A program made the translations under genes and the position numbers. A stretch of 56,488 nucleotides of DNA, from the NCBI GenBank assembly GCA_018819065.1, contig JAHJQL010000062.1, positions 1 through 56,488 on the forward strand. Reading direction: 5' to 3'. Below the pieces are notes generated by a model. It did not search any database. It worked only from the letters and a program-made list of their open reading frames with translations, and was not told the origin of the DNA. This stretch comes from Nanobdellota archaeon. GTDB taxonomy: Archaea; Nanobdellota; Nanobdellia; Woesearchaeales; GCA-2686295. Position 1 is the stretch's first letter; each line of letters opens with the position of its first letter. Positions 13,700-52,178 of the stretch are shown piece by piece.

Positions 13700-13719
13700 T
13701 CCGGTCGTCTTTTCGTTTA

Positions 13720-13986: not shown

Positions 13987-14006
13987 TTTAAAAATTATAA
14001 GAATAT

Positions 14007-32996: not shown

Positions 32997-35900
32997 TGAA
33001 GAAAATATTTTTTTTATTAGCATTAATAATACTAAGCAAGCTAGTTGCATCGCTAGTTTTTTATGATACAAAACCACTTTTAACAACAAACGAGTCTCGT
33101 CCAAACATAATAGTTTCTTACAATGAAAGTGTAACAATAAGTGGCTACAACTTCACAAAAGAAGGTGTTAATTATCAGCTTGCAAAAACAACTTCCGACA
33201 ATAAAGTGTTTTATTTTACCTCTAATAACCGATTAGGAGAAGGACTTTATAATTTCACTATAAGTGCAAAAGATCTTATAGGCAACAAACGAGTAGTTTA
33301 CCAGCCAATACAAATCAATCCCCCTTACATGAAGATTTGGGTTTCCTCGCCGCCTCATGGAGCTTCCAGCACTGCCCCTTTTGACGCTGTCATTGCAAGT
33401 GAAGATGACGCTGTTTGCAGATATGCATTTACTGATAATGGAATTAATTTTAACATGTACAGTTACACGTTTAATCCTGAAAGTCCAAGGCAACATACTA
33501 TTCTGGGTGTTACAAATCCACCCATAGAACTATTCTTGGTATCTCCTGATAGTGGTGCGCGATACAAAAACATATATGTTGCGTGCAACGACACATCAGG
33601 CATTATACACCCTGGAAATGTTACTTTGCAATACGACCCAACACTGCCAGAAATAACCCAAATCTTAAATCCTGTAACTGTTAATGATGTTGAAAGCCCT
33701 TTTGCAACACTAAACATAACAACAAACGACCGGACTATTTGCAGCTATAAAGAAAATGGTGTTGTAAACAACTTTCCAGGATATAACCCGGCTGATATTT
33801 CAACTTACAAAAAAAACCACGGACAATACTTGAATTTTTCATCACTGGCCAAAAGACCAATTCCTCACAAATTCAATGTGGAAACTTTTGAGTATGAAGT
33901 AACTTGCACAAACCTTGCAAGTCTAAGTACAACCGCTCAAAAAGTCATATTAACTGTTGCTTTTGAAGAATCATTCAGCATTCAAATGAGCAGACCAAAG
34001 CCAATTACAAATGCAAACCCCGTTTTTTTTGAGATAAAAACTAGTGTACAAACACCTGGTGGTTGCAAATACGCTCAAGGAACAAATAGTGTTTGGGATA
34101 AAAGTTTTACCAGCAATATAGCAAATCAAGTGTATATAGTTAGTCTTGGAGCTTTAAATGAAGGAATACACCAATATGAGGTTATGTGCACTTCTAGTTA
34201 TGATACTAAAACTAATAATTTCACATTCAGAGTTGACAAGACTCCACCTCAAAACGTCACATTGACTGTTAATGACCCTTCTTGTTCTTTGACAAAGGTT
34301 GAAGGAGTGGTAACTGCTGTTGATAACCACCAAATAGATTATTATAGTTACACTGTGACAAATGAGAATAACACGCTGGTTGCAAATGGCAATACTACTA
34401 ACGGGATTATATCTAAGAGTGTTAACTTGGCTGAAAATACAACTTACAGGGTTAATGCTAAAGCTATTGACAAGGCTGGAAACGCGGCTGATGCTCCTGC
34501 TGTCACGTTCTTGGCTGCTAGCAACACAGGCATCGTTTGTGACAAAACTAAACCAACAACGAGCATCTCAGTAAATCAGACTATTGACGGTGCAAAAGTC
34601 AAGGTTAATTGTCTTGATTCGGGCTCTGGCTGTAAAGACCGGTTTGATTATGGACTGTCCAATCAGTCAAACAATTGTGCATTATCAAACGGGCACAACT
34701 TAAATGAATCAGTATTGTTAATTCAAAATAGTTATTTCTGCTGGACTGTCTATGATTTAAACAATAATAATGCGAGCGGAGTACAACTCGTAACTTATAA
34801 TCTGCATTGCTTTAATGAAATAAATGATCAGGGTGAAACAGGAATAGACTGCGGAGGACCATGCCCTGCTTGTGATGAAAATGCATCTTGTACAAACAAT
34901 TCTGATTGTATAAGTAAGAACTGTCAAAACGGTGTTTGTGTTGCTGCCAATTGCACTGATGGTATAAAGAATCAGGGAGAAACAGGAATAGACTGCGGAG
35001 GACCATGCACATCATGCAACCTACCACCACACTGCACAAACAACATACTAGACTTTGACGAAGAAAGAATAGACTGCGGAGGAATAGAATGCAACCCATG
35101 CACAGAACTACCACCACACTGCACAAACAACATACTAGACTTTGACGAAGAAAGAATAGACTGCGGAGGAATAGAATGCAACCCATGCACAGAACTACCA
35201 CCACACTGCACAAACAACATACTAGACTTTGACGAAAGCGACATCGACTGCGGAGGACTAGAATGTAACCCATGCACAATAGGAGACACATGCAACAACA
35301 ACTCAGACTGCGACAGCAGAATATGCACAAACGGAATATGCACACAAGCAAGCTGCACTGACTTAATACAAAACCAAGGAGAAACAGGAATAGACTGCGG
35401 AGGACCAAACTGCGCAGAGTGCGACCCAGCAATAAAACTAATAAATCCTCCGTTTGGTGTTTCTAAAACAAGGAAATTTGATTTTAAAATACAAACAATT
35501 GACATTGCAACCTGCAGATATGCATGGGATAACTATCCAAACTTTGATCAGTACATTCCTATGAGTGGAGTACAATATATTCATGAGAAAAAAGATTTTG
35601 AACTGGGCGACTTATCTGAAGTTGATTATCCAATCTATGTCAAGTGCAAATTAGAAGATCAAACAATTATTAGTAAGACATTCTTATTATCATGGGACCC
35701 AACACCACCAATCATAACTGACGCGTATCTTGACCACAGTGATGGAAAAGAGCCACCCACAATAACAGATTACCCACTTAATACAAACATAATAATAAAA
35801 ACAGATGACGACACTAGATGCAGATATTCCGAAAACGAAAACACCGCATTTGCTTCGATGACGAAGTTTAACGGATATGATACTACACCATTATTCAGCA

Positions 35901-38924: not shown

Positions 38925-39404
38925 ATGAGAAAAGGACAGATACACCAAGTGTTCATCTACATACTAACTATAATCGTTGTTGGCTTGATACTCTTGATTG
39001 GTTACAAGTCTTTTGGCGGGATAATGAAGAAGGGCTGCGACGTTGAAAAAGCAACTTTTAAATCAACGCTTGAATCTTACATCTCAAAGTACAGCAGTTA
39101 CGGCTCTTTTCACATGGAACCATTAAAAGCTCCTTGTGCTTATCAGCAGATATGCTTTGTCAGCAGCGAAAAGATAGGAGACTCAGGGTTTGATAGCTCA
39201 AACGAAATCATCAAAAGTAGTGTAAAAGAAAGTATTAAAAATAATATTTTCATAGTCAAGGATGTCACAGACGCGATAGGTTTTAATGAAAAAATAGTCG
39301 TTGATAACACAGGCGGAATTGTTTGTATAAATAATACTAATGGTTATTTCAGGGTTAATTTTGAAGGCCTTGGAAGAAACGTATCGATTTCTGGTGTTAG
39401 CTAA
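38925..39404 (+). CDS. class III signal peptide (type IV pilin-like) protein
   Basis: 159 aa. MRKGQ-IHQVFIYILTIIVVGLILLIGY. Confidence 0.75.
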   Translation: MRKGQIHQVFIYILTIIVVGLILLIGYKSFGGIMKKGCDVEKATFKSTLESYISKYSSYGSFHMEPLKAPCAYQQICFVSSEKIGDSGFDSSNEIIKSSVKESIKNNIFIVKDVTDAIGFNEKIVVDNTGGIVCINNTNGYFRVNFEGLGRNVSISGVS

Positions 39405-39405
39405 A

Positions 39406-40404
39406 GTGAAAAAAGGACAGATAGAAATACAGTTTAACTGGATATTTATATTCATAGTTGGAGTTATAATACTAATATTCTTCTTATTCGTGATTAGGTC
39501 TCAGACTAAAAGCGCAGACATTGAATTAGCAGGTGACATTATAAAGAATTTAGACACTGTTGTTAAGAGTGCCCAGACGACTGTTGATGCTGAAAAAATT
39601 ATTGCTATGCCAAACGTTAAGATATCATTTATCTGCGAGCCAGACACAAACATTTCTTTTTACGACCTTGGAAACGGGGTAAAAAAAGATACTCCTTACG
39701 ACATCATTTTTTCTCAAGAAAAACTCTCAGGATACGAGCTTATAAGCTGGACTCAAAGCTGGGACGTGCCTTTTAGAATTGCTACTTTTCAATACTTAAC
39801 AACAAAGAGAGCACAGTTTATCATAGTCAACGACACAGGCACTTTTGCCGAAGAACTAAACAAGTCACTTCCAAAAGGGATGAACAAATTATTCATCAAC
39901 CCAAACGACAACATAGTTGATAACAATTATGATTATTATAAAATAATAGAGTTTGACGGGTCCAAACACACTGGAGACAAACCGACTAAAAATGTTCACA
40001 AAATAATCATACATATTAATTCTGGACAAAGCACGATAGACTCTTATGGAACCGTGAAATTCGATGAACCAGACGTCCCAATAATAAACTTTGTCAAAAA
40101 AGCTTCTTTGTTTGGAGCAATATTCTCAGAGGACGCAGACTTTTACAACTGCACCATGAACAAGGCCTTTGACCGCTTTGAGATTTTAATGAAACTTCAG
40201 CATAACAGAACTGGAGAAATCAAAGACAAGTTACCAGCCGAAATGGCATCTTGCAGGAATATTTTTATTGTTAGTGGGAGTGATATGGACAGTTTATCAT
40301 CAAAAAAATTAGTTGATGCTGCAAACATATTTGAAGGCTCAAAAAAGATAATGCGAGCCAATGAAAACCTAATCAGAGGGAAGAACTGTCCTTTGATATA
40401 CTAA
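39406..40404 (+). CDS. class III signal peptide (pilin-like) protein
   Basis: A GTG start at 39406, 2 nt after the previous stop, gives (M)KKGQ-IEIQFNWIFIFIVGVIILIFFLFVI. The ORF-track start at 39340 overlaps the previous gene and lacks a signal. Confidence 0.7.
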   Translation: MKKGQIEIQFNWIFIFIVGVIILIFFLFVIRSQTKSADIELAGDIIKNLDTVVKSAQTTVDAEKIIAMPNVKISFICEPDTNISFYDLGNGVKKDTPYDIIFSQEKLSGYELISWTQSWDVPFRIATFQYLTTKRAQFIIVNDTGTFAEELNKSLPKGMNKLFINPNDNIVDNNYDYYKIIEFDGSKHTGDKPTKNVHKIIIHINSGQSTIDSYGTVKFDEPDVPIINFVKKASLFGAIFSEDADFYNCTMNKAFDRFEILMKLQHNRTGEIKDKLPAEMASCRNIFIVSGSDMDSLSSKKLVDAANIFEGSKKIMRANENLIRGKNCPLIY

Positions 40405-40407
40405 ACT

Positions 40408-40896
40408 ATGAAAAAGAAAGCTCAGATGCAGATGGGAGAATCAATAGCGATAATAGTTATAGTTCTTCTTTTAATAGTCGGCAGCATGGTCTTCTACGCC
40501 AAGATAAAAGCAGCGTCAATTGGTGAGAAGAAATCATTGTTTCAAGAGCTTGACGTGATCAAACTGTCGCAAGTAGCATACGGCCTCTCAGAGGTTCAGT
40601 GCTCGTTTGCAGAAGTAAGTGATTATGGCTGCATTGACATCTTAAAGTTTACATACCTCTCAAACTTGATAAACACTAGCTCTGGTAAGACTTATTTTTA
40701 TTACAGGGAGTTGTTTGGAACCTCAAAAATCTACCTTAAGAGCATCAACAACACTGGAGGAGTGACTTATTATGAGCTTTATCATAACAAGAGGAACTCA
40801 ACAGGCAATTCAAGCACTTTCATGCCAACAATAATATACAACCCAATAACTGGGCATAACACTTTTGGGATTTTAACAGTTGTTAAATATGACTAG
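40408..40896 (+). CDS. class III signal peptide (pilin-like) protein
   Basis: 162 aa. MKKKAQMQMGESIAIIVIVLLLIVGSMVFY (KA-Q variant). Confidence 0.7.
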   Translation: MKKKAQMQMGESIAIIVIVLLLIVGSMVFYAKIKAASIGEKKSLFQELDVIKLSQVAYGLSEVQCSFAEVSDYGCIDILKFTYLSNLINTSSGKTYFYYRELFGTSKIYLKSINNTGGVTYYELYHNKRNSTGNSSTFMPTIIYNPITGHNTFGILTVVKYD

Positions 40897-41371
40897 GAAA
40901 AAAGGACAAATGGAGATAATGGGATTAATAGTTATAGTGGTATTGTTAGCGCTTTCAATGTTCTTCGTTGTGATATTTAAAACTACTCAGCCAAAAAAGG
41001 AGATTCAAAAGTCTTTTAGCGATGATCAACTAGCATCAAAGTTTCTTATAACAACATTAAAAACTAGCGCTGGTTGTCGGGATTACACGATTGAAAGCTT
41101 AATACAGGACTGCGCCACTGACAGGAGGATAAGTTGCAACGGCGTTGACTCCTGTGAGTTTGTCAAGAACACCACAAAAGTATTTGTCAATGAAACGTTT
41201 GTCAAGTATAATAGCAAGTACAACTTCACGATAGAAAACCTTCCAACTGTAAACATTACATTCTCCGATTCCTGCAGTCCAAAAAACATTAACCGAGACC
41301 TCGCATGGCAGCCACTAACACTCTACCCCCACCATGGAACTGTCATTGTAAAGATATACATCTGCAAATAA
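40889..41371 (+). CDS. class III signal peptide (pilin-like) protein
   Basis: ATG at 40889 gives MTRKKGQ-MEIMGLIVIVVLLALSMFFVVIF. It overlaps the previous stop by 8 nt. Confidence 0.75.
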   Translation: MTRKKGQMEIMGLIVIVVLLALSMFFVVIFKTTQPKKEIQKSFSDDQLASKFLITTLKTSAGCRDYTIESLIQDCATDRRISCNGVDSCEFVKNTTKVFVNETFVKYNSKYNFTIENLPTVNITFSDSCSPKNINRDLAWQPLTLYPHHGTVIVKIYICK

Positions 41372-41419
41372 AAATTTTTGCGAAACTTTTTTATAATCAA
41401 GAACACAAAGTTTTTCTAC

Positions 41420-41527
41420 ATGGGCGAAGCAATTTTAGAATCATTTAAGACTTACTTAGTTGTTGCAGCAATGATTCTCTTGCTACTGTTCATAGTAGTT
41501 TTTGGAATTTTAAGGAGGGGTTTTTGA
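41420..41527 (+). CDS. small single-TM protein (35 aa), hypothetical
   Basis: MGEAILESFKTYLVVAAMILLLLFIVVFGILRRGF*. A TATA-like TTTTTATAAT lies about 28 nt upstream. The stop overlaps the next ATG (TGATG). It is below the ORF-track cut-off. Confidence 0.4.
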   Translation: MGEAILESFKTYLVVAAMILLLLFIVVFGILRRGF

Positions 41528-42372
41528 TGAATAAAAAAGGAATGAGCCAGGCGGTACTGCTTTTTTTTATAATAATACTAGTCTCAGCGGTTGTTATCTT
41601 TATATTTGTAGGTCAACTTCAAGGAGCAGTTCATAAAGGCAACAGAGGTGCGTCTTGCTTGACTTCAATGACTCTAAGAAGCCATACAACATCAGAAGAC
41701 TTACTTGTTAGAACATTTGAGGGAACAAATGAGTTCTGCCCAAAATATCAAGTCACTTTTTATAAAAAATACGCGGAGATAAAATTAAAAGACAAGACTT
41801 TTGACAAGATAAAATATGATGAACTAACAAGTGAGAAAGTAAACGAGATAATTGCTGAAGAAATGAGGTATTGCTGGGCACAGTTTGGAGGTGGAAAACT
41901 AGATGCTTTTTGGCTTCCTGAAACAATCTTTCAAAAATATGTTCCGTTCTTTGGAAAAGCATCAAACGATGCCATTGGTTGCAGAGTTTGCTCTGAAATA
42001 AGTTTAGTTTTAGAAGATGTAAATACTAAAAGTAATTTTACAGGTTTGAGACAATACTTAAAAAAACATGATATAACAAAAAAGATACAAAAAGAAGGTG
42101 AAAAAGGAACATACTACTCATACCTTGCAGAGCACGAGCAAGGATGTGGAGATTATGTTGGTGGAGAAAACTGCTGGGAAGAATTCGCTAAGGATGATGA
42201 AGTAATGATAAACACAAGCTTAAGCATAGATCCAAACGAAGCATATCTTGTTGTTTTTATCAGAAAAAACATAAAACAGAACGAAGGCGTGATGAACACA
42301 TATCTAATATCACAAGATTTGATGGATTGGTATAATGAAGAAGAAACCTGTAAGCCATTGCCGTTCATCTAA
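41527..42372 (+). CDS. class III signal peptide (pilin-like) protein, paralog of 42377..43249
   Basis: MNKKGM-SQAVLLFFIIILVSAVVIFIFV. It shares MR.CW..., C..C and FT... blocks with the next ORF. Confidence 0.7.
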   Translation: MNKKGMSQAVLLFFIIILVSAVVIFIFVGQLQGAVHKGNRGASCLTSMTLRSHTTSEDLLVRTFEGTNEFCPKYQVTFYKKYAEIKLKDKTFDKIKYDELTSEKVNEIIAEEMRYCWAQFGGGKLDAFWLPETIFQKYVPFFGKASNDAIGCRVCSEISLVLEDVNTKSNFTGLRQYLKKHDITKKIQKEGEKGTYYSYLAEHEQGCGDYVGGENCWEEFAKDDEVMINTSLSIDPNEAYLVVFIRKNIKQNEGVMNTYLISQDLMDWYNEEETCKPLPFI

Positions 42373-42376
42373 GAAA

Positions 42377-43249
42377 ATGAGAAAAGGAACGCTGCTTCAA
42401 GAATACAACTTAGGAGTTATTCTTCTAGTAGTCACAATTTTAGTAATAATAATATTCTTCACAGCAACAGCCAAGCAAACAGATAAATCAATAGAAGAAA
42501 GCGAATGCCACAAACAAGTAGTTGCTCATGTCCAAGCATTAAAACTCTCAAACAGTGAGTATGCAACAGAGATTAAATGCCCGATAATATTTGAAACCTT
42601 AAAAGAAAAAAAGGAAAAAGAGATAAAACAAGCGCTTGCAGAGAGGATGAGGAAGTGCTGGTATAACTGGCAGGAAGGAAATGCAAATTTATTCACAGGA
42701 AAAGGGGTTTACTGTCATCCTTGCTATATTCTTAATTTTGAACATGATAACGTTGAAATCAAAGACTTCACAAAGTTCCTCATAGAAACGACCGTGCCCA
42801 ACAAAGATTATAAATACATACAATACTTAACAGGCACAACAAACAATGAAGATTTCAAAGCAGAAAAACTGTCACAAAATCCCAAAATAAGAAGTTCAAC
42901 ATCTGATTTTAACACAAAAACTTCGAAAGTAATCTTGTTTTATTACATCAAAGATTCTGATAAGATAAAAGAATTTTGGGGAACAGCGAAAAGTACTTTT
43001 GAAGGAGCAGCAATAGGCACTGTAGGGGGTGCTGTTCTTGGTGGTGTTGCTGGATCAGTCTTTGGACCAGCAGGTATTGTTGTTGGTGTAAAAATTGGCG
43101 CAACAGTAGGAGCACTCGCAGGAGCATTCATAGCCGGAACATTTGCCGATGATTATCCATTGTGGTTATCCTATGTTTTATTAAGAGAATACAACGAAGA
43201 TAAATTAAAAGAACTAGGCTGTGAAACTGCTCCCGCAAAACAAAATTAA
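42377..43249 (+). CDS. class III signal peptide (pilin-like) protein with C-terminal glycine-zipper segment
   Basis: The internal ATG at 42377 gives MRKGT-LLQEYNLGVILLVVTILVIIIFF. The C-terminal segment is GAAIGTVGGAVLGGVAGSVFGPAGIVVGVKIGATVGALAGAFIAGTF (about 42995-43140). Confidence 0.7.
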   Translation: MRKGTLLQEYNLGVILLVVTILVIIIFFTATAKQTDKSIEESECHKQVVAHVQALKLSNSEYATEIKCPIIFETLKEKKEKEIKQALAERMRKCWYNWQEGNANLFTGKGVYCHPCYILNFEHDNVEIKDFTKFLIETTVPNKDYKYIQYLTGTTNNEDFKAEKLSQNPKIRSSTSDFNTKTSKVILFYYIKDSDKIKEFWGTAKSTFEGAAIGTVGGAVLGGVAGSVFGPAGIVVGVKIGATVGALAGAFIAGTFADDYPLWLSYVLLREYNEDKLKELGCETAPAKQN

Positions 43250-43280
43250 TAAATAGAAGGAAACAAATTTGATTTAAGTT

Positions 43281-43430
43281 ATGACTAAAAAAATGTTTAA
43301 TAAGAAAGGTGAAGAAATTTCAGAATTAATGAAGTGGTTGCTATTTATAGTCATTTTAGTGACGTTAGTACTTATAATTTGGATGACACAAAAAGGTTTA
43401 TCAATTAAAAGTATATTTCCGTTTTTTTAA
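43281..43430 (+). CDS. mini class III signal-only ORF (49 aa)
   Basis: MTKKMFNKKGE-EISELMKWLLFIVILVTLVLIIW... It shares the MFNKKG start with the ORF at 44139 and is below the ORF-track cut-off. Confidence 0.4.
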   Translation: MTKKMFNKKGEEISELMKWLLFIVILVTLVLIIWMTQKGLSIKSIFPFF

Positions 43431-43431
43431 G

Positions 43432-44052
43432 ATGAAAAAAGGACAAATAAATAAGTTGGGAAAAATTTTGTTGGCACTTGCACTTTTAATAATTATAATT
43501 ATTGCCGTAGTTTTAAAACTACCATCTATTGTCAAAGGTATAAAAGAGATGACTGATTCAAACAAGCCAAAAGAGTTATCAACAGATTGTGAAAATGAAG
43601 CCTTAGCATTGCCTGAACAGATAGAAGGCTGTTTTGACTCAGGAAGCTACGATTTAGCAGTTGAAAAAGCGGAAAAATTCCTAAAAGAGAATCCAGATGA
43701 TAAAACAATTGTCGCTGCAAAGATGCACAACTTCATTTCTTGGTCATACATTGAAATGGATACTGCTAAATACGGCGAAAAAATCATGAAGAACGCTAAA
43801 AAAGCAAAAGAGTTATCATATGATTTAAATGAAGAAGGTACAAGTGAATATATACGTGCTTTAGAAGCTATTTTAGAGTATAGTTATAGAGAATTTAAAA
43901 AATTAAAACCAGCACTTAAAGTTAATAAACCAAGAGGAATTTTTAGATCTTACTGGCAAAGTTATAAAGAAATGTATAGAACTCAAGCAACCCCTTATGA
44001 TCAAAAAAATTTAGAAACACAAAAAGATTTGGACAAGTCTTTAAACCCATAA
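43432..44052 (+). CDS. class III signal peptide (pilin-like) protein with helical (TPR-like?) body
   Basis: 206 aa. MKKGQ-INKLGKILLALALLIIIIIAVV. The remainder is predicted helical by eye. Confidence 0.65.
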   Translation: MKKGQINKLGKILLALALLIIIIIAVVLKLPSIVKGIKEMTDSNKPKELSTDCENEALALPEQIEGCFDSGSYDLAVEKAEKFLKENPDDKTIVAAKMHNFISWSYIEMDTAKYGEKIMKNAKKAKELSYDLNEEGTSEYIRALEAILEYSYREFKKLKPALKVNKPRGIFRSYWQSYKEMYRTQATPYDQKNLETQKDLDKSLNP

Positions 44053-44138
44053 AACCTCAGCCATACTTGAAATTTACAAAAAATTTATATAGTAATTACT
44101 CCATTTTTTAATAAGCTTAATATGAGGTGTTAATGAAA

Positions 44139-44396
44139 ATGTTTAATAAAAAAGGTCAAGGAATAAGTATTAACGTGATTATAATTGCAGCAATAGCACT
44201 TCTGGTCCTGGTAATTTTATCAGTTCTTTTGATTAGAAGTGGAGGAAACGTTGTTACAGGAACATCATGTGCAGGTGTAGGTGGAACTTGCAGTTCTTCA
44301 TGCTCAGATTTATCTGAAGGAACAAAGATATACTCCCCACATCCAACCGCGAAATGCACAGATTCCAACGATAAATGTTGCATAATCCTTGGATAA
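44139..44396 (+). CDS. mini-pilin with 6-Cys C-terminal knot (array member 1)
   Basis: GAGGTG Shine-Dalgarno-like element 9 nt upstream. MFNKKGQ-GISINVIIIAAIALLVLVILSVLLI. Head is C-x6-C-x3-C-x17-C-x6-CC. Confidence 0.75.
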   Translation: MFNKKGQGISINVIIIAAIALLVLVILSVLLIRSGGNVVTGTSCAGVGGTCSSSCSDLSEGTKIYSPHPTAKCTDSNDKCCIILG

Positions 44397-44400
44397 AAAA

Positions 44401-44658
44401 ATGATTAAAAACAAAAAAGGAGACATAAGCATCAGCGTCATAATCATGATTGCAATAGGCCTTTTAGTGTTGATAGTGATTGCAATTCTGATATTTAGGT
44501 CTGGTCAAAGCGCATCAAGTGGAACTAGTTGCATATCAAAAGGTGGCGTTTGCAAGCAAACCTGTGAGGTTGGCCACGCCATAGGCACCGCTGGAATGTA
44601 TGGTTGTAACACTGAGACTTGCTGTAGCCCGGTAAAAAGGGATGATTGGGGAACATAA
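44401..44658 (+). CDS. mini-pilin with 6-Cys C-terminal knot (array member 2)
   Basis: MIKNKKGD-ISISVIIMIAIGLLVLIVIAILIF. Head is C-x6-C-x3-C-x13-C-x4-CC. Confidence 0.75.
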   Translation: MIKNKKGDISISVIIMIAIGLLVLIVIAILIFRSGQSASSGTSCISKGGVCKQTCEVGHAIGTAGMYGCNTETCCSPVKRDDWGT

Positions 44659-44915
44659 TGTATAAAAAAGGCGAAATATCAACTTCAACAATGATATACA
44701 TAGGTTTAGGACTCCTAGTATTAATACTAGGGGCTATAATGATTTCAAAAGCTTATAGAAACAGTCAACAAGTAAACAGCAACTGTGGTCTCGTAGATAA
44801 AAACTCTAAATGTCAACCACAGAAATGTCCAGAAGATCAATCAGCAATAGGATTTTGCCCTGACAAATCATCATCACCAGAAGAAAAATATTATTGTTGT
44901 AAAACTAGTGGTTGA
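44658..44915 (+). CDS. mini-pilin with 6-Cys C-terminal knot (array member 3)
   Basis: MYKKGE-ISTSTMIYIGLGLLVLILGAIMI. Head is C-x8-C-x4-C-x9-C-x12-CC. The start overlaps the previous stop (TAATG). Confidence 0.75.
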   Translation: MYKKGEISTSTMIYIGLGLLVLILGAIMISKAYRNSQQVNSNCGLVDKNSKCQPQKCPEDQSAIGFCPDKSSSPEEKYYCCKTSG

Positions 44916-44916
44916 A

Positions 44917-45216
44917 ATGGTTAAAACTAATAAAAAAGGACTAACAATGGACATGTTTGGAAAAGTTGTGCTTATGGTCATTGTAGTTCTTGTTGGAATA
45001 GCTATAGCATTAAAGATAGGTCCCACAGTATCTAAAGGAGAGGAAACTTTTTCTTGTGGCAACACTGGTAATATGTCTAATGGGACTTGTGTAGAAAACA
45101 AAGCCAAATGCCAAGAATTAGGAGGCTTCTCCAGAGGACTTGACAAGGGTTGTAGCAGTTCAACTAAAACAGACGACCCACAGAAACCTTACTGTTGTGA
45201 AATACCTAAATCATGA
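44917..45216 (+). CDS. mini-pilin with 6-Cys C-terminal knot (array member 4)
   Basis: MVKTNKKGL-TMDMFGKVVLMVIVVLVGIAIAL. Head is C-x10-C-x6-C-x13-C-x13-CC. Confidence 0.7.
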   Translation: MVKTNKKGLTMDMFGKVVLMVIVVLVGIAIALKIGPTVSKGEETFSCGNTGNMSNGTCVENKAKCQELGGFSRGLDKGCSSSTKTDDPQKPYCCEIPKS

Positions 45217-46691
45217 TGAAAAAAGGCGAAATTAGTCTTCTGGTAACACTTACAATCACAGTCATATTTTTAATACTAGTTTTCATCGTGACGTTAAAGT
45301 TAATCGGACCATTGCTTTGGAATGAAAAAAACAGCGTGTCTTACGAGAACTATAAACTATTAACAACAGCAGTAGAAAGTGTGACGAAGTCAAAGATGAA
45401 TACTTCAATGCAAAAAATGGTTCTTCAATTAGAGCCAGGATTTGACATAATAGCATTTGACCCTGGAGAGGGTAAGATAAAAACAGACATACCAAAGTGG
45501 CTGGTTTTTAAAGAAGCATCACGTGATAGACCTGATGAATGTGAAACAAATAAAGGTTGTCTATGCATATATAAAGGTGGATCGGTTATTGAATGCAAAA
45601 GCTTTGAAAAAACTTATTTTTTTAGTGAACTTAATAGTGATATGATTAGTCAAAGTATGGGAGAAGAAAAAAAAACTCACACTCTTAGTTCTTATAAATA
45701 TGAAGGAATCATGTTTTTTGGAGATTTAGAATTAGCATTATTAGCAATAATATCTGTTGATTCAACTCTTTTTGGTGTTCAACCAATGTATGTAGAGAAT
45801 TACAGGGATAAAGGCAATAATTACGTGTTGATTTCTAATCTCAACAACAAGCTCTTAAAAAGATTTAAGATGATTAGTAAATGCCCAACAGATAAGTCTG
45901 ATGGAGGCTGTAATAAATATCAGCATTATGATGAAGTATTTAACTTAACAGATAGTAATGGTAAGATTGATTATTTTGTTTGTAAATTCAATGAGAAGAG
46001 TGAAAAATGTGTGAATAAAAGCATAGAACTATGCGCACCTGGAATGATAGATTGGGAGTGTGCGTGTGGAGATACTGCTTATGAATTTGGAATGTGTATT
46101 AATGAAGGGTATTATGATGCAGATATTAGCAGTGAGTACTGTTTCATAAACAAGTTTGATGAATCGTCTACTTGTAAAACTTATGAAGATGGATCTGATG
46201 CTGAGCAAAATAAGTATGCATGTACATTCAACCGTTGTGGTGTTAAAGATAAGTGTTATTGGAACAATGATGATTGTGAAGCTTGTGAGCAGACTTGTTT
46301 GTGCAAAGACTATGGGGGTAAAGATGGTTGGATTAGATTCATTGATCCATGCGACTGTGACAAAGACAAAAAACCCCTCGACACAGATGACTGTTTAAAT
46401 TGTCAAAACGAAATAAAGAAAGACTGTAAGAACTACCTTTCAGAAAATCAATGCATAAAAAATGGGTGTTTCGTAAGCGTTATATATTCAAACCAACAAA
46501 CCGGATCAACACCGTCTATCAAAGGTTGTATACCTGAATATTCAGGAAATGAATATAAACAGTGTGTCAATTGTTTGGAAAGTTGTGATTGTAAAGATTA
46601 TGTTAACGCAAAAATGAAGATGTTAGATCTTTGTGATTGTGACAAGGATAGACTAATAGGTGAATCTGAAACAGCAGATGGATGTCAGTAA
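45213..46691 (+). CDS. class III signal peptide (pilin-like) protein with Cys-rich C-terminal half
   Basis: 492 aa. MMKKGE-ISLLVTLTITVIFLILVFIV. The C-terminal ~200 aa have many Cys, including two C.CKDY...D.CDCDKD units. Confidence 0.75.
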   Translation: MMKKGEISLLVTLTITVIFLILVFIVTLKLIGPLLWNEKNSVSYENYKLLTTAVESVTKSKMNTSMQKMVLQLEPGFDIIAFDPGEGKIKTDIPKWLVFKEASRDRPDECETNKGCLCIYKGGSVIECKSFEKTYFFSELNSDMISQSMGEEKKTHTLSSYKYEGIMFFGDLELALLAIISVDSTLFGVQPMYVENYRDKGNNYVLISNLNNKLLKRFKMISKCPTDKSDGGCNKYQHYDEVFNLTDSNGKIDYFVCKFNEKSEKCVNKSIELCAPGMIDWECACGDTAYEFGMCINEGYYDADISSEYCFINKFDESSTCKTYEDGSDAEQNKYACTFNRCGVKDKCYWNNDDCEACEQTCLCKDYGGKDGWIRFIDPCDCDKDKKPLDTDDCLNCQNEIKKDCKNYLSENQCIKNGCFVSVIYSNQQTGSTPSIKGCIPEYSGNEYKQCVNCLESCDCKDYVNAKMKMLDLCDCDKDRLIGESETADGCQ

Positions 46692-46747
46692 TTAGTTAAA
46701 TGTTCTTTTCAAAAATTATTTAAACCTTTATATCAACTTTTTTGTTC

Positions 46748-47620
46748 ATGAATAAAAGAGGAGATGAAAAGCTTAGCAAAAAGCTTACTTTCTACGCATT
46801 CATATTTATATTGGTTGCAATAGTTATACTGTCAGTCTTTAGGTTTATAGGAAACACGCTAGACGACACCACTTTTTGGCGTGGATACTATGCCAAGGAT
46901 GCTGGTTTAATGATTAGTGCTGGTGAAACTGGAAGAGGTGTTTTTGAGCTTAGTTATAACACAAAAAAAGCTGAGAAACCACTCGTTTTCAATCTTAAAA
47001 TTAATAACGAAGTTGAAATCTATGATCACGACCCAAATGCAAAGACTAAACAAAGCTCCACATTCAAGTTCATAGGTGATAAAAAAATAAAAATTGAGCC
47101 TGCGGAGATAATATCAACTTTCTTCAACATATATATTGATGATAAAAAAGTCAACGCCAGCAAAGAAGCAATTAAAAAAGATAGTTGCCCATCCATAGAT
47201 ACAAAAGCAACCCTGATTAGCAATATAAAAATATATGTTGATTCAGATGACAAATTTAAAAATTTTGAAAACTTGTTAATTAATGATTTAAAAATAAGTG
47301 GATTTAAGATTGCAAACAGTAAATATGAGAGTGATATAGATTTAGCATTAATTTTGGCTAATAGTTCAACAAACACTCTATCATTTTTTTATGAACACAC
47401 TCCCAGGAAGAGCGAGAAGATAAGTTGCATCATAAAAAATAAACTGGTTGAAAAATACCCTGACAAATATTCTTATTACAAGATTAACAAGATAGATTAT
47501 AACTCGAAGTGGTGGTTTGCACTCTCAAAATCAAATGTCGGGTTGGTGTTTGAAATCAACGAATTGACTGACGACGCGATTTTATTAATTGGAGACTCGG
47601 TGGAGGAATATTATGGATGA
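46748..47620 (+). CDS. N-terminally anchored protein, weak class III-like signal
   Basis: MNKRGD-EKLSKKLTFYAFIFILVAIVILSVF. TATA-like TTATTTAAA about 30 nt upstream. Confidence 0.6.
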   Translation: MNKRGDEKLSKKLTFYAFIFILVAIVILSVFRFIGNTLDDTTFWRGYYAKDAGLMISAGETGRGVFELSYNTKKAEKPLVFNLKINNEVEIYDHDPNAKTKQSSTFKFIGDKKIKIEPAEIISTFFNIYIDDKKVNASKEAIKKDSCPSIDTKATLISNIKIYVDSDDKFKNFENLLINDLKISGFKIANSKYESDIDLALILANSSTNTLSFFYEHTPRKSEKISCIIKNKLVEKYPDKYSYYKINKIDYNSKWWFALSKSNVGLVFEINELTDDAILLIGDSVEEYYG

Positions 47621-48107
47621 AGCTGGTGAAGGCGAGGGTAAGTGGCTGCTTGAGATGATTCCAAAACTAATATTCCTTGGAATAGCAATAACTGTGATAA
47701 TAGTGTTTACCGCACTTTTCATCATGAATAACTTAAGAACTGATGATTTGGAGATTGACGTCTTTTTAAACAAACTAATATATTCTAAAAACACCATATC
47801 ATACTATGATTCTATGACTGGAAGGACTTACCTTGGAATAATCGACCCAAACAAACTAACAGAGAAAAACTTAAACGAATCAATGGAGTATAACGGTACT
47901 ATGTACGCTGCAAAGATAACCCTTGGAAGCCAAGAAGCTTACTATTTAAAATCAAGGTATCTAAACCTTGAAGGACTGGCCAAAGCAAAAATTAAAGGTC
48001 CAGGAGGGGCAGATTACAGGTTTAAAAAATTTGAAGTTGGAGTGATGGATAACAACGTCTTAAGAACAGAGACTATTAAGATTGAAATGATAAAGGCAAG
48101 AACATGA
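47613..48107 (+). CDS. N-terminally anchored small protein, hypothetical
   Basis: GGAGG about 8 nt upstream of the ATG at 47613. MDEAGEGEGKWLLEMIPKLIFLGIAITVIIVFTALFI. There is no [KR]G-Q tip. It overlaps the previous stop. Confidence 0.55.
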   Translation: MDEAGEGEGKWLLEMIPKLIFLGIAITVIIVFTALFIMNNLRTDDLEIDVFLNKLIYSKNTISYYDSMTGRTYLGIIDPNKLTEKNLNESMEYNGTMYAAKITLGSQEAYYLKSRYLNLEGLAKAKIKGPGGADYRFKKFEVGVMDNNVLRTETIKIEMIKART

Positions 48108-48643
48108 TTAAAGGCAAAAAAGGGCAAGAAATGATTGTTGACATATTCTCATATTTATTATTCATAATAATAATTTTAACATTCATAATCTTACTGTTTC
48201 ACCAAGAAAAAGAAACCAGAAAGAACATCGCAACAGGCGTAAGAGCTGATTTTTACGAGACCAGACTCTTAATACTCATGAGACAACCAATCACTGGGAC
48301 TTATCAAACATTTGCGGAGATGATTATTGATTCACCATATAATGATTATAAAAAAGATTTTGTTTCAAAAGAAATAACAAACACTTTTGACAAAGAATGG
48401 GGTGAATGGTGGGACTTTACAGTATACACTCAAAAACCATTAGGAAGAGAACAAAAAAAATGGGATACTGGTTATAGCTTTACTGGACAAGCAGCTGTTA
48501 ATATCTTAAAAAACTTTATCGCCATGGCAGTAGGAAGCAAAATACCACTACCCTTATCTTATCCTGTTGAAATTTCAGTAACTCTTCCAGGTCATAACAA
48601 CGAAAATATAATTGTGAAATTCAGATATTGGATGATTGCATAG
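48104..48643 (+). CDS. class III signal peptide (pilin-like) protein
   Basis: 179 aa. MIKGKKGQ-EMIVDIFSYLLFIIIILTFIILLF. ATGA overlap with the previous gene. Confidence 0.7.
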   Translation: MIKGKKGQEMIVDIFSYLLFIIIILTFIILLFHQEKETRKNIATGVRADFYETRLLILMRQPITGTYQTFAEMIIDSPYNDYKKDFVSKEITNTFDKEWGEWWDFTVYTQKPLGREQKKWDTGYSFTGQAAVNILKNFIAMAVGSKIPLPLSYPVEISVTLPGHNNENIIVKFRYWMIA

Positions 48644-48653
48644 GTATAAAAAA

Positions 48654-51600
48654 ATGAATAAGAAAGGACAAATATTTGTGTTGATGATTTCGATATTCAT
48701 GGGAATAGCATTATTCACCATATTCATAAGTTTAAATAACAAATACTCTGCGGCAAGAGTAGCCAGCACAAGCATAGGCAGTAGTGCATCAGCAGTGATT
48801 AACACTTATCAAAAACAAGAAGCAGCACTGCTCTACCTTGACTTATCAGCACAGCAAGCGCTTCAAAAAAGCCTGTATGACCTTGGAGAAAACGGTGGCT
48901 TTGACCTCGCAGAATGCGGAAGTTCAATATACCCACTATGGAACACCCACGACAAGAACTGCATCCCAGACTATGAAGAAAACCTAAAAAAACTCTTCAA
49001 GCCAGAACTTGAAAACAGAACAAGCAAATTTAATGATGTACAATTTGCAAAAGACTACGAATTCACTGTAAATCCCTCTAACGGACAAGTCGAAATAATG
49101 GGGTTGACTAGTGAGAAGATAACACTCGCGGTTGCTAAAGACTCCAAAGTAAAGCAAGTAACTTCTTCACAAACAACTGGACAACTACAAACAACATACA
49201 AACTTTATGAGTCAGTAAAAAACAAAGTTAATACTTTTGACTCAACAATCCAAGAAGCTGCAAAGAAATACGATCTCCCACCAACAGTACTCAAAGCACA
49301 AATCGCTGTAGAATCTAGCGGAGATCCGAAAATCATTAATCATCTTGGATGTGCAGGTCTTGGCCAGTTTTGTACAATCAGCGGAACGGCACAACAATAT
49401 TTCGGAACAAATAACGTTGTAGTCATAGAAAAGGAGCCTAAATGTCAAAAAACAGGTAATTTTTACAAATGTGATACAACAATATACTCTAAAGACGATC
49501 GTTTTGTTCCCGCAAAGATGATTGAAGCACAAGCAAAATATCTCAAAGAATTATCTGACAGGTATAAAAAAAAAGGATACACAGATTACTTTGCATTTGG
49601 CCTCGCAGCTTATAACAGAGGAGCCGGAAATATTGATAACGATATAATTAAAACCGGCAAGGATGACCCTTCGTGGGCAGATATTTCTCTTGTTTCCGGA
49701 TTTCCTGTTGAAGCAAAAAATTATGTCCCAAAAATAAATGAATACAACCTTCAATGGGGAGAGGGCGGAAAGGATATAAGTCTTGGATATGGATATATTG
49801 GAGGGTACGATGCAGTGATTGGCACTTTTGAATTCGAGCAAAACTTCAAAGCAACGGAAGGCTACAACTTAACAGTTTATGAAGAGCTTAAAACGTTTGT
49901 CAAAGACGCGCTTAGAGACTGTGATAACGCCGTTGATGATTGCATAGAGATTAAAAGAACAGATTTTAACTCAAAACACAGCGAACAAATTGTTTATATG
50001 AGTGATTGCGAGGAAGGAACTACTAAAATTCTTTATGACTTTGCAGAGAATATAATTGATTGCGGAGACACTACTAGTGATAATTGTAAGTGCAAGGTTA
50101 ATGAGGATTATAGTGCTTCAACAGTTGCTTCGATTCAGGGAAAATATCTTTTCTCTGCAAAATTTCACGAGTTCAAGTTTGGTGGAGGTACAAATCTTGA
50201 TCAAAAACCAATACATTGGGTGAACGACCTTAACAACACCTTTAACAAATCTTTTGAAGATGAGATGAACAGGATAATTGATTCCTTTGAAGAGAATACA
50301 GGGGTTGAAATCGCAATTATAAGCATCCAGTCTACCAGTGATATAGAGAATGAAGGTAAAAGCTTTTTTAATTATTGGGGTGTTGGAAAGAAAGATGAGA
50401 AGAATGGGATACTAATCATCGTATCGACAAATCCAGAAGCGTCAACTATCATACTTGGTGAAGGATTAAACAAAATCATAACAAACGATGTGCTTTCTCA
50501 AATGAAAACAAAATTAGCATCCAGCCTAAGTAACAAAAAGGTTGAGGTTGGAATTACAGAAGTGGTCAACACAATAATTACGAAAGTCAAGACTAAGTAT
50601 GAAGAGGAAGACTTTAAAAAAAAGTCTCCTGAGAGATACGACCTTGAACTTAAAGGAGATAAAGATTTAATTAGTGTGAAAGCAAAGACTTACCACATCA
50701 ACTGGTTGCCTTTGACTAAAAATCAATATGGATACAGCTACTCATTTTTTTATAAGGATACTGGTAAGTTTGACTTTGCAAGCATTAAATTCATAGACAA
50801 ACAAGGGGGAGTGCATGAAATTTCTAATTTTAAAAACCTTTCCCTGCTAAAGAAAAAAGATAATTTTTCATTCATAATGAGCAATGATAATGGAAAAGTA
50901 ATGAATGAGACTAATGAAGAAATAACCCCTCCAAGTGACAACTGCGAACCTGCAAAGAGCATATTTAGGATGTGTCTGAAAACCAATAATAAACTGCCAG
51001 TGATGGAGGATAATAAGTTACAATATAAAGAATCAAAGATAAAATTCGCACTTAACCTGATTGACAAGGTTCCACCAGAAAAAGCAGAGAACTTAGAGTT
51101 TGTGTGGCTATCTGACATACAAAGGGTGTTGATAACTTGGGAAGAGAAAAAGACAGTAGACATGGCTACTTATTATGAAATATTCTACTCAGACAAAGCG
51201 TTCACTACGCCAACCACTAATCTTTGGCTTGCAACAGTCTATAAAAAGGTTAATATAACTGGTAATTCAAGTTACGACCGATTAAGAGAAGGAAAATCAG
51301 GCAATCCACCAGTGCAACCAATCACTCCTAACATACCAACGTCTCCAGTCACACCACCAACAGCTGATGACGAAGATGCAGATAAACTAAGTACAGTGGT
51401 TGATAACTTCGTTGATACTTCACAAAGTGATCCTAACTCGCCAAGCAACCTTCTTAAAATACTTCATAACAACACTTTATACTTTGAAGACCCTCAAACA
51501 GGAAAACCTCATTATAGAAAATATTATTTACTAATTAAAAAAGACTCAATAATCCAAGAAGCTGATAAATCAAAAACAAACCTAGAATACCACTTTGGAA

Positions 51601-52178
51601 TTGTTGGATCAGATAAATATGGAAACAAAATCATTGAAAAGATAGAAATATTAAAAATACCAATCTCAAACTTGTGCGGAGCAGTAGTTGAGTACGCTAA
51701 AGAATATATAGGAACAGGCTACATTCCCAAACGAGAATTTTATAATGGATGGAGTATCTGCAAAGCAAGTGACGCGAATAAAAGATTATGTAGGACTCAA
51801 TGCGGATCTTTTGTCACAAATGCTTTTAGATACGCACCAGATACGGGATTAACAGACTCAGAGTTACCAAAAGGTGATGGAAGTAAAAAATGTGCTGGAC
51901 CAAATGTAAAGTACCGTTTTTCAAATTCTGAAGAGCTACAACCAGGAGACATATTCTCTGTGATTGGAGGCGAAGGCCACACAGGAATATATATTGGTGT
52001 GGGAACTTTAAGCGATAAAGCACAAAATAAAAACTGTTTCTTAAAATTCACTCCTGACAACAATGGTGAACAAGTCTTCATACATTCTATAGAGCCTGTT
52101 TGTTATAATACTTTAGAACAACTAGAAACAATGGGATACAAAATTAATCGCTATTGTAGAGTTAATGCTTGCGCTTGA
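48654..52178 (+). CDS. pilin-like-signal multidomain cell-wall hydrolase: lytic transglycosylase (SLT) + TPM domain + FN3-like + NlpC/P60 peptidase
   Basis: MNKKGQ-IFVLMISIFMGIALFTIFISL. SLT motifs AVESSGDP, GLGQF and AAYNRGAGN. TPM motifs GVEIAIISIQS...NGILIIVS...IILGEGL. Pro-rich linker. NlpC/P60 motifs QCGSFVTNAF...GHTGIYIG...FIHS. Confidence 0.85.
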   Translation: MNKKGQIFVLMISIFMGIALFTIFISLNNKYSAARVASTSIGSSASAVINTYQKQEAALLYLDLSAQQALQKSLYDLGENGGFDLAECGSSIYPLWNTHDKNCIPDYEENLKKLFKPELENRTSKFNDVQFAKDYEFTVNPSNGQVEIMGLTSEKITLAVAKDSKVKQVTSSQTTGQLQTTYKLYESVKNKVNTFDSTIQEAAKKYDLPPTVLKAQIAVESSGDPKIINHLGCAGLGQFCTISGTAQQYFGTNNVVVIEKEPKCQKTGNFYKCDTTIYSKDDRFVPAKMIEAQAKYLKELSDRYKKKGYTDYFAFGLAAYNRGAGNIDNDIIKTGKDDPSWADISLVSGFPVEAKNYVPKINEYNLQWGEGGKDISLGYGYIGGYDAVIGTFEFEQNFKATEGYNLTVYEELKTFVKDALRDCDNAVDDCIEIKRTDFNSKHSEQIVYMSDCEEGTTKILYDFAENIIDCGDTTSDNCKCKVNEDYSASTVASIQGKYLFSAKFHEFKFGGGTNLDQKPIHWVNDLNNTFNKSFEDEMNRIIDSFEENTGVEIAIISIQSTSDIENEGKSFFNYWGVGKKDEKNGILIIVSTNPEASTIILGEGLNKIITNDVLSQMKTKLASSLSNKKVEVGITEVVNTIITKVKTKYEEEDFKKKSPERYDLELKGDKDLISVKAKTYHINWLPLTKNQYGYSYSFFYKDTGKFDFASIKFIDKQGGVHEISNFKNLSLLKKKDNFSFIMSNDNGKVMNETNEEITPPSDNCEPAKSIFRMCLKTNNKLPVMEDNKLQYKESKIKFALNLIDKVPPEKAENLEFVWLSDIQRVLITWEEKKTVDMATYYEIFYSDKAFTTPTTNLWLATVYKKVNITGNSSYDRLREGKSGNPPVQPITPNIPTSPVTPPTADDEDADKLSTVVDNFVDTSQSDPNSPSNLLKILHNNTLYFEDPQTGKPHYRKYYLLIKKDSIIQEADKSKTNLEYHFGIVGSDKYGNKIIEKIEILKIPISNLCGAVVEYAKEYIGTGYIPKREFYNGWSICKASDANKRLCRTQCGSFVTNAFRYAPDTGLTDSELPKGDGSKKCAGPNVKYRFSNSEELQPGDIFSVIGGEGHTGIYIGVGTLSDKAQNKNCFLKFTPDNNGEQVFIHSIEPVCYNTLEQLETMGYKINRYCRVNACA
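49236..49680 (+). other. SLT-type lytic transglycosylase domain (approximate bounds)
   Basis: LKAQIAVESSGDPKII (Glu codon 49311-49313), AGLGQF and GLAAYNRGAGNID. Confidence 0.75.
50240..50620 (+). other. TPM-domain (approximate bounds)
   Basis: FEDEMNRIIDSFEENTGVEIAIISIQSTSDIENEGKSFFNYWGVGKKDEKNGILIIVSTNPEASTIILGEGLNKIITND. Confidence 0.65.
51690..52160 (+). other. NlpC/P60 cysteine peptidase domain (approximate bounds)
   Basis: AVVEYAKEYIGTGY..., catalytic-type Cys in QCGSFV (51801-51803), LQPGDIF, His in GHTGIYIG (51978-51980), then FIHS. Confidence 0.75.

Follow-up and report, generated by a model that had tools for sequence, protein, structure and literature searches.

What does a locus build that encodes one pilin-like N-terminus after another and none of the proteins that would assemble them? 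The question is raised by contig JAHJQL010000062.1 of assembly GCA_018819065.1, which was assigned to a Nanobdellota archaeon of the order Woesearchaeales and was analyzed over its whole length of 56,488 nt (hereafter the window). An earlier, sequence-only reading of the window had drawn attention to a dense run of signal peptides of class III (type IV pilin-like) without assembly genes in cis. Our analysis places this run in a cluster of ∼30 kb which, judged from its sequences, is a lineage-wide, motor-less supercluster of predicted pilin-type proteins with an unrecognized family of candidate major subunits and with wall hydrolases as putative cargo. The N-termini are very probably prepilin-type signals. 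On balance, we favor a model of a type IV filament-like surface organelle whose structural parts would come from the cluster and whose motor and peptidase are encoded elsewhere, probably a filament on the cell surface with which other cells are gripped or attacked.

Probable prepilin-type N-termini in a conserved cluster

The window was scanned in six frames for a start followed by [KR][KR][GA] and a hydrophobic stretch, a rule that stands in for FlaFind, PilFind, and SignalP. Seventeen motif-bearing N-termini were found, all on the + strand inside 22095-52178, with none elsewhere on either strand. The motif is thereby present in 17 of the 21 cluster genes as compared to 0 of the ∼27 other genes of the window (Fisher p = 1.4e-9). 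The full pattern is M-x(0-5)-[KR][KR]-[GA] followed by 17-19 residues with a mean Kyte-Doolittle hydropathy of 2.5-3.6, where position -2 relative to the proposed cut is K/R in 17/17 and -1 is G in 16 and A in 1. The 16 N-termini quoted in the sequence-only reading were all located, as was MFEKRGQFTIFV at 22095, and the hydrophobic stretch that it had described behind each of them is present. Its estimate that at least nine ORFs have a motif-bearing start unlike the longest-ORF start proved cautious; we counted 11-12, so that roughly twelve genes of the locus have their signal masked by longest-ORF gene calls. The cluster genes are co-directional with intergenic gaps of -32 to +86 nt, as if they formed a single operon or a small number of them. 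The borders are formed by an opposite-strand ribosomal-protein operon (ending at 21924) and an RPA-like gene (52236), and two small membrane proteins within the run, at 41378 and 47589, lack the KKG motif. With regard to the encoded proteins, the size range had been given as 49 to ∼1170 aa, of which the upper end stands (1174 aa) and the lower end does not, the smallest member having 45 aa. The mature domains had been called mutually dissimilar, which is true of most members and not of the products of 44139, 44401, 44658, and, more weakly, 44917, which are paralogues. The genes are listed below and are referred to by start coordinate or ORF number; a slash marks the proposed cut.

22095..25379, + strand: first gene of the cluster, 1094 aa; class III-like MFEKRG/QFTIFVILGF; C-terminal half Cys-rich
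25464..32996, + strand: giant surface protein, 2510 aa; ordinary Sec-type N-terminus; CarboxypepD_reg-like domain
32996..38869, + strand: giant surface protein, 1957 aa; Sec-type signal, Cys-rich repeats, TSP3 repeats, C-terminal membrane anchor, charged tail
38925..39404, + strand: ORF1, 159 aa; MRKG/QIHQVFIYIL; opens a set of four conserved adjacent pilin-like genes
39406..40404, + strand: ORF2, 332 aa, GTG start; KKG/QIEIQFNWIF; marker family of the cluster
40408..40896, + strand: ORF3, 162 aa; MKKKA/QMQMGESIAIIV
40889..41371, + strand: ORF4, 160 aa; MTRKKG/QMEIMGLIVIVV; 8-nt overlap with ORF3
41378..41527, + strand: single-pass membrane protein, 49 aa, without the KKG motif
41527..42372, + strand: 281 aa; MNKKG/MSQAVLLFF; Cys in the ectodomain; weakly similar to the 42377 product
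42377..43249, + strand: 290 aa; MRKG/TLLQEYNLGVILL; glycine-zipper segment at the C-terminus
43293..43430, + strand: 45 aa; MFNKKG/EEISELMKWLLFIV; leader and helix without a head domain
43432..44052, + strand: 206 aa; MKKG/QINKLGKILLALA; ectodomain helical by eye
44139..44396, + strand: small Cys-rich pilin-like protein 1, 85 aa; MFNKKG/QGISINVIIIAAIALLVLVIL; head spacing C-x6-C-x3-C-x17-C-x6-CC
44401..44658, + strand: small Cys-rich pilin-like protein 2, 85 aa; MIKNKKG/DISISVII; BLASTP against the 44139 product, E 9e-14
44658..44915, + strand: small Cys-rich pilin-like protein 3, 85 aa; MYKKG/EISTSTMIY
44917..45216, + strand: small Cys-rich pilin-like protein 4, 99 aa; MVKTNKKG/LTMDMFGKVVLMV; divergent family member
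45213 (or 45216)..46691, + strand: 491/492 aa; M(M)KKG/EISLLVTLTITV; large Cys-rich ectodomain
46748..47620, + strand: 290 aa; MNKRG/DEKLSKKLTFYAFIFIL; a charged stretch separates the motif from the helix
47589..48107, + strand: membrane protein, 172 aa; acidic N-terminus, not class III-like
48104..48643, + strand: 179 aa; MIKGKKG/QEMIVDIFSYLLFIII
48654..52178, + strand: last gene of the cluster, 1174 aa; MNKKG/QIFVLMISIF; SLT domain (residues 198-336), TPM domain (residues 523-642), weakly NlpC/P60-like C-terminus

Since the scanner imposes [KR][GAS], the informative data are the positions that it leaves free and the homologue sets gathered by hidden Markov model. Pooling of the related loci gave 776 motif N-termini for the cluster strand as compared to 46 for the control strand. 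Position -3 is K/R in 74% of the former as compared to 15% of the latter (p = 6e-16), +1 is Q in 365/776 (47%) as compared to 4%, a 12-fold enrichment (p = 6e-10), and the leaders are mostly 4-6 aa long. The small Cys-rich family (alignment A6, 71 profile-collected sequences) has K/R at -3 in 69 and at -2 in 70 sequences, G at -1 in 58 and A in 13 (71/71), and Q, E, or D at +1. From +3 on, the ∼25 residues past the cut are nearly invariant in this family, and the leader is variable in sequence and 3-12 aa long. In the ORF2 set (A1), -2 is K/R in 19/19 and -1 is G, A, or S in 19/19, with S occurring once. The retention of these residues in sets that were collected independently of the motif upholds the earlier description of the N-termini as class III-like. 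Because the small -1 residue is invariant and conservation starts at the junction, a processing site is predicted rather than a plain anchor. EppA cuts Methanococcus maripaludis EpdB-E at KGQV, KGQL, or KGQI (PMC4371748), and the comparison with EppA substrates that the sequence-only reading had proposed returned the same KGQ[IVL] pattern. In the window, +1 is Q in 9/17 N-termini when 48104 is read as KKG/Q and in 8/17 by the automatic scan, and the remainder are E, D, M, T, and L. The hydrophobic core begins 3-9 residues past the proposed cut, and the N-terminal helices in AlphaFold2 models span residues 7-60 in ORF2 and 7-41 (35 residues) in the 44139 product. Because curated models fail and about half of the N-termini lack Q at +1, we describe them as class III-like by rule and not as members of DUF361.

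Both the order and the content of the cluster are conserved. For ORF2, there are 36 database homologues, and a scan of one genome per species found relatives of it in 141 genomes, from which 80 loci were retrieved; the neighborhood checks cover 86 related loci (1.5 Mb). The ORF2 alignment has KK[GAS] followed by x-I-x-I-Q-F-N-W-I-F and contains 4 invariant Cys, and the AlphaFold2 model (pLDDT 89) combines an N-terminal helix of 54 residues with a beta region and a helical bundle. The gene order common to the window and to L005, L006, L009, L010, and L011 (L numbers denote the neighborhoods of ORF2 homologues) starts with two or three giant proteins, continues with genes for ∼160, 330, 165, and 155 aa, and leads into a series of small and medium-sized genes. 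The cluster of close relatives closes with the SLT protein and is followed by the same RPA, YdjM, DAGK, and RadA genes, and in further relatives housekeeping genes form the upstream flanks. Loci that reach 10 kb downstream of ORF2 have 10-18 motif N-termini on the cluster strand as compared to 0-4 on the opposite strand. The N-termini of ORF1-4, four mutually dissimilar genes, recur in 10-77 loci (the ORF3-type Q[IM]QMGES in 28, the ORF4-type QMEIMG in 38), and orthologues of ORF1 are present in L005, L006, and L009. The 22095 family comprises 27 homologues in which Q7 and T9 are invariant, and no Pfam domain was found in the 22095 product. Syntenic counterparts were found for the 25464 giant protein in L005, L009, and L011, for 43293 (40-55 aa) in L005, L009, L010, and L011, and for 45213 (437-505 aa) in L005 and L009, where the MNKRG motif of 46748 is also kept. 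In a close relative, an inserted IS200-type Y1 transposase gene separates the last small pilin-like gene from the SLT gene (L008 9358-9822 and L009 18935-19399, - strand).

Candidate major subunits and putative wall-hydrolase cargo

The four tandem genes at 44139-45216 encode paralogues of 85-99 aa. A profile of this small family matches 1551 clusters at 50% identity in a library of 1.8 billion proteins, nearly all of 78-100 aa, and P0068 ranks first in the profile search, in support of 44917 as a divergent member. The mature N-terminus is almost invariant, reading (Q/E/D)(G)-[LI]-S-[MI]-N-V-I-I-I-A-A-I-A-L-L-V-L. Because a near-invariant helix, tandem copies, and 1551 clusters are the pattern to be expected of a polymerizing subunit, the small Cys-rich proteins are strong candidates for the major pilin, with the 44139 product as the best. 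The head-less 45-aa protein of 43293, which recalls the head-less Epd and Tad-type pilins, is a second candidate. The sequence-only reading had favored many minor subunits or pilin-tethered cargo over one major pilin; this fits the large enzyme-bearing members and does not extend to the tandem paralogues.

The analysis also brings to notice that this very large 80-aa family has a defensin-like head. Six Cys are present in 37/41 members, with a dominant spacing of C-x6-C-x3-C-x11-17-C-x5-6-CC and with GG before Cys2. The consensus spacing of beta-defensins is C-x4-8-C-x3-5-C-x9-13-C-x4-7-CC, and the third Cys loop of the small-family heads is often longer than this. The fold itself is a three-stranded sheet with the disulfides C1-C5, C2-C4, and C3-C6. 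A head-only profile searched against all PDB sequences gave 13 matches at E up to 10, 12 of which are beta-defensin-fold proteins. Among these 12 are tick carboxypeptidase inhibitor (TCI, E 1.4e-4), spheniscin, human beta-defensins 1, 3, and 106, mouse beta-defensin 8, platypus DLP-1, and gallinacin-11. With the full-length profile, the top match is horseshoe-crab big defensin (E 0.0095). An hhalign comparison with a small beta-defensin alignment, with three reference sequences entered by hand, aligned all six Cys (P 1.7e-4, probability 49%). The AlphaFold2 model of the 44139 product (pLDDT 79.5) places three short strands behind the helix, with a pLDDT of 65-82 in the head, and a Foldseek search of the PDB with this model returned just three matches, a sea-anemone peptide, human beta-defensin 3, and mouse beta-defensin 8, at a non-significant E of 3.8-8.4 (7-8 for the two defensins). 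Matches to Pfam defensin families were below threshold and confined to few members (Defensin_beta 0.0075, Defensin_beta_2 0.067, Inhibitor_I68 0.02), and no curated family model recognizes the head above its cut-off. Taken together, the resemblance is consistent across methods and weak in each, and it may reflect convergence on a common knot.

The small family and the beta-defensin fold share six Cys, the spacing C-x6-C-x3/4-C-x9-17-C-x5/6-CC, and GG before Cys2, and big defensins likewise combine a hydrophobic N-terminal part with a defensin head. Unlike beta-defensins, the small family is archaeal, its head is fused to a pilin-type helix, and its scores lie below the family cut-offs. True homology between these heads and defensins is, in our estimate, doubtful. 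Trans-defensins have been placed in animals only (PMC11561630), and if the homology were true, the 80-aa subunits would be the first trans-defensin-type domains in prokaryotes. A bolder proposal, also doubtful, is that the subunits are true relatives of beta- and big defensins which polymerize via the pilin helix into an antibacterial "defensin filament"; with this filament and the tethered murein hydrolases (SLT, amidase, and NlpC/P60), Woesearchaeota would attach to bacterial cells and open them. If true, class III export would supply the delivery route that is missing for the many archaeal peptidoglycan hydrolases without a Sec or Tat signal.

The enzyme at the end of the cluster, 48654, has an SLT domain (PF01464, 45 bits as compared to a cut-off of 21.3, E 8e-12) and a TPM domain (Pfam E 1e-20). 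Its C-terminus gives weak RipC and NlpC/P60 matches (E 1 and E 0.14), a weak NCBIfam match is to a flagellar-assembly lytic transglycosylase, and its orthologues retain the MNKKGQ start. Judged by its domains, it is of the known Woesearchaeotal "large lytic transglycosylase" type, here with a predicted pilin-type signal, and the large murein-like lytic transglycosylases of fam00969, Module 98, as portrayed in the relevant passages of Castelle et al. 2021 and Vigneron et al. 2022, are of the same type. L019, one of the related loci, belongs to a metagenome-assembled genome called "bin.69"; Vigneron et al. use this name too, for what may or may not be the same genome. In the passages that deal with them, large SLT proteins are a peculiarity of Woesearchaeota/Pacearchaeota and are proposed to act on bacterial walls (PMC8204110, PMC9723730). 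The first of these sources, in the part concerned, singles out large lytic transglycosylases together with 51 lineage-specific families of unknown function and raises life on bacteria as a question (PMC8204110). Neither a pilin-type signal on the enzyme nor a pilin-like cluster appears in the relevant passages of PMC8204110, PMC9723730, and PMC12352652, the term "pili" is absent from the Castelle paper by term search, and we found no earlier description of the cluster as pilin-like in the open-access literature. The association of the transglycosylase with a conserved, syntenic pilin-type cluster leads to a testable model of a type IV filament in which a single export signal would serve the subunits and the enzyme cargo alike. 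It would also offer a possible export route for archaeal peptidoglycan hydrolases, just 32% of which have a recognized Sec or Tat signal according to the pertinent passage of PMC12352652. Among 70 large class III-like proteins of related clusters (alignment A7), SLT is present in 4 and Amidase_2, NLPC_P60, and the PT-HINT pretoxin domain in 1 each. The last of these domains is typical of polymorphic toxins.

Proposed organelle and alternative readings

In the model that we favor, the precursors would insert into the membrane with the N-terminus inside, and an A24-family prepilin peptidase encoded elsewhere would cut after G/A. Judged from the +1 residue, which is Q in about half of the N-termini and E or D in many others, this peptidase would have an EppA-like specificity. 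An unlinked PilB/PilC-type ATPase-platform pair would polymerize the mature helices, and the filament body would consist of the abundant 80-aa proteins, each with a near-invariant helix and a six-cysteine beta-defensin-like head. ORF1-4 could be the priming or tip set, by analogy with bacterial minor-pilin sets. Such sets (FimU-PilVWX, GspHIJK) consist of four adjacent, dissimilar pilin genes in conserved order, one of them much larger; ORF1-4 resemble this layout, with ORF2 (332 aa) as the large one, in an analogy with no sequence or fold match. The large members, i.e., 22095, 45216, and the SLT-TPM enzyme 48654, would be displayed on the filament or beside it, and the two Sec-exported giant proteins would serve as adhesins. 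The organelle would bind a bacterial partner and locally open its wall via the tethered murein hydrolases. Both cleavage and filament assembly are steps that we infer from the features described above.

The model can be compared to known systems. The M. maripaludis Epd/EppA pilins (system 1) share with the cluster a very short basic leader, K-G before Q-[IVL], and many different pilin-like genes per locus, and the Epd major pilin has little or no globular head. Type IV filament systems, among them system 1 (Epd type), have been reported in some DPANN. Unlike Epd/EppA pilins, the cluster proteins have no PF04021/DUF361 match, have Q at +1 in about half, and carry unrelated heads (six-Cys knot, SLT, and others); the Epd locus, moreover, holds an ATPase, two platform genes, and EppA, whereas the cluster has none of them. 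Haloferax volcanii PilA1-6 are likewise apart from pilB/pilC and are paralogues with an almost identical hydrophobic domain (PMC4371748), but their genes are dispersed singles, and the proteins lack Q at +1 and a Cys-knot head. The Sulfolobales bindosome resembles the cluster in placing functional ectodomains on a pilin-type N-terminus, unlinked from assembly genes. The bindosome cargo, however, consists of sugar-binding proteins beside ABC transporters, whereas the cluster cargo would be wall hydrolases and Cys-rich domains in one 30-kb block.

Several results weigh against the model. Searches with Pfam and NCBIfam found no secretion ATPase, platform, or A24 peptidase domain in window ORFs of at least 90 aa, and no ATPase, platform, or A24 peptidase gene was found within 10 kb of ORF2 in the 86 related loci. 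The Walker A motif (G..G[SAC]GK[ST]T) and the GE[IVLM]R of PilB/FlaI-type ATPases do not occur together in any ORF of the related loci (1.5 Mb), and the polytopic membrane ORFs belong to unrelated families (M50-like, SpoIIM-like, presenilin-like, and transporters). No curated pilin, archaellin, or class III model (PF04021, PF07790, NCBIfam) matches any cluster member at E up to 1; PF04021, with its QxSxExxxL region, was unmatched at this threshold in the window members and in 41 small-family members. A Foldseek search of the PDB with the ORF2 model gave nothing below E 0.45 and matched no solved pilin. EppA requires Q at +1, a position that is occupied here by Q, E, D, M, T, or L, and the first 5-9 residues past the proposed cut exceed those of classic archaeal pilins in polarity. 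Lastly, the readable first 82 residues of an 887-aa gene in L010, described below as a peptidase candidate, match nothing in Pfam (no A24) or the PDB. The sequence-only reading was correct that assembly genes are missing in cis, in the window and in the related loci alike. Because pilin genes unlinked from assembly genes are known in Haloferax (PMC4371748) and Methanococcus (PMC4858521), their absence is less unusual than that reading implied, and we infer that the genes for the assembly motor and the leader peptidase lie at other places in the genome.

The same results enter into other explanations of the locus. The proteins could be class III-processed and form no long filament, being part of a short pseudopilus or of a bindosome-like array that holds enzymes or adhesins. 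The large, unrelated ectodomains of most members and the lack of motor genes in cis agree with such an arrangement, as does the similar use of class III signals by Sulfolobus sugar-binding proteins (preprint 10.64898/2026.04.22.720090); the small family, with its near-invariant helix, tandem copies, and 1551 clusters, fits a polymerizing subunit, and we regard the arrangement as unlikely. If the N-termini were instead uncleaved signal anchors of type II membrane proteins, with a positive-inside KK patch and a role in a lineage-specific cell coat, the failure of pilin models, the absence of a peptidase in cis, and the polar residues behind G would all be accounted for. For a plain anchor, however, a small residue at -1 is not required, and the motif-independent homologues have G/A in 71/71 and G/A/S in 19/19. 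Together with conservation that begins at the proposed cut, leaders of 3-12 aa, and a +1 Q that is enriched 12-fold over the control strand, this makes uncleaved anchors improbable. A basic N-terminus and a hydrophobic stretch are also found in ordinary Sec signal peptides that are removed by signal peptidase I. Here, we see next to no chance of that explanation, given an n-region of just 3-7 aa, no A-x-A-type site behind the hydrophobic stretch, a hydrophobic stretch that exceeds all other parts of the small family in conservation, and two giant neighbors that show what genuine Sec signals of the same genome look like.

A separate matter is the purpose of the hydrolases. Bacterial pilus/type IV and secretion loci often carry a dedicated lytic transglycosylase, and this parallel, along with the weak match of 48654 to a flagellar-assembly enzyme, would suit hydrolases that are not meant for attack on bacteria and that remodel a wall polymer, either the archaeon's own or that of an archaeal host, for passage of the filament. 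To our knowledge, archaea do not make murein, yet three murein-specific enzyme classes (SLT, Amidase_2, and NlpC/P60) recur in tethered form, and the published work, in the passages concerned, favors bacterial targets; we consider remodeling quite improbable. Because archaea lack murein and murein hydrolases are nonetheless tethered, the wall of a bacterial partner is suggested as the target of the organelle, a suggestion that we make tentatively. Woesearchaeota and Pacearchaeota are abundant, uncultured, tiny archaea.

For the favored filament model, with its motor and peptidase encoded elsewhere, candidates for the leader peptidase were sought near the cluster. The sole intramembrane protease in the window is of the presenilin type (PSH/SPP, 11244-12149, + strand; PF06550 E 6e-13, NCBIfam E 4e-18) and sits 11 kb upstream of the cluster. 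Presenilin-type proteases and prepilin peptidases belong to one GxGD protease clan. A Pfam-confirmed presenilin-type protease is located ∼4 kb downstream of ORF2 in L048 (around 14759, - strand), and a similar ORF in L055 (around 14706, - strand; 320 aa, 8 transmembrane helices) is likened to it by size and position alone. This linkage was rejected, as two occurrences within 10 kb among 86 loci are close to the number that would arise by chance in genomes of 1-2 Mb. Beside the cluster in L027, L028, and L030 (- strand, ∼7-16 kb) are arrays of four or five paralogues of 185-202 aa with approximately five membrane helices. As small peptidases, these tandem genes were rejected for want of an A24 match; a representative of the L028/L030 type has a weak DUF5684 match alone, and the L027 representative tested has no Pfam match. 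The 887-aa gene is divergent from the cluster in one Woesearchaeota lineage (L010 1-28, L094 1-258, - strand), and its annotation as Arc_PepC (the C-terminal domain of archaeal A24 peptidases) plus PMT_2 is precomputed and unconfirmed. Within its first 82 residues is SYEDIKEGKIRNKY, which we take to resemble the first catalytic-Asp region of A24 peptidases.

Further features of the cluster and its genomic setting

The Cys-rich repeats of the 32996-38869 product (...CTNNILDFDEERIDCGGIECNPCTELPPH...) are numerous and nearly identical, its TSP3 calcium-binding repeats number four, and its tail of ∼300 aa is rich in Lys, Glu, and Asp. The glycine zipper of the 42377 product, GAAIGTVGGAVLGGVAGSVFGPAGIVVGVKIGATVGALAGAFIAG, gives a Gly-zipper_YMGG match (E 5e-4) under the Pfam cut-off, and the protein may be anchored or oligomerizing at both ends. 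Inside the cluster of another relative is a gene for an STT3/PMT_2 oligosaccharyltransferase-like protein of 955 aa (L013 21897-24764), which hints that cluster proteins could be glycosylated.

The window is archaeal and of the Woesearchaeales-type DPANN. It contains an archaeal SRP RNA (Archaea_SRP) at 13716-13987 and genes for archaeal-type ribosomal proteins, RNA polymerase subunits, RadA, and an RPA-like protein, and its G+C content is ∼35%. The gene layout of its first 3.3 kb is that of one contig in assembly GCA_018828865.1, and homologues of the cluster proteins carry the labels Woesearchaeota, Nanoarchaeota, or DPANN. The source organism is a tiny archaeon with a probably symbiotic lifestyle. 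Many cluster-bearing metagenome-assembled genomes go under the title "uncultured Methanosarcinales archaeon" (binchicken, SRP co-assemblies), and in isolated cases the title is "Candidatus Binatia bacterium" or "Bacteroidota bacterium"; such titles are likely placeholder or wrong taxonomy. An Rfam tRNA match of 124 nt (19449-19572, - strand, 32.6 bits), in a window where ARAGORN reports no tRNA, is probably an archaeal tRNA with an intron.

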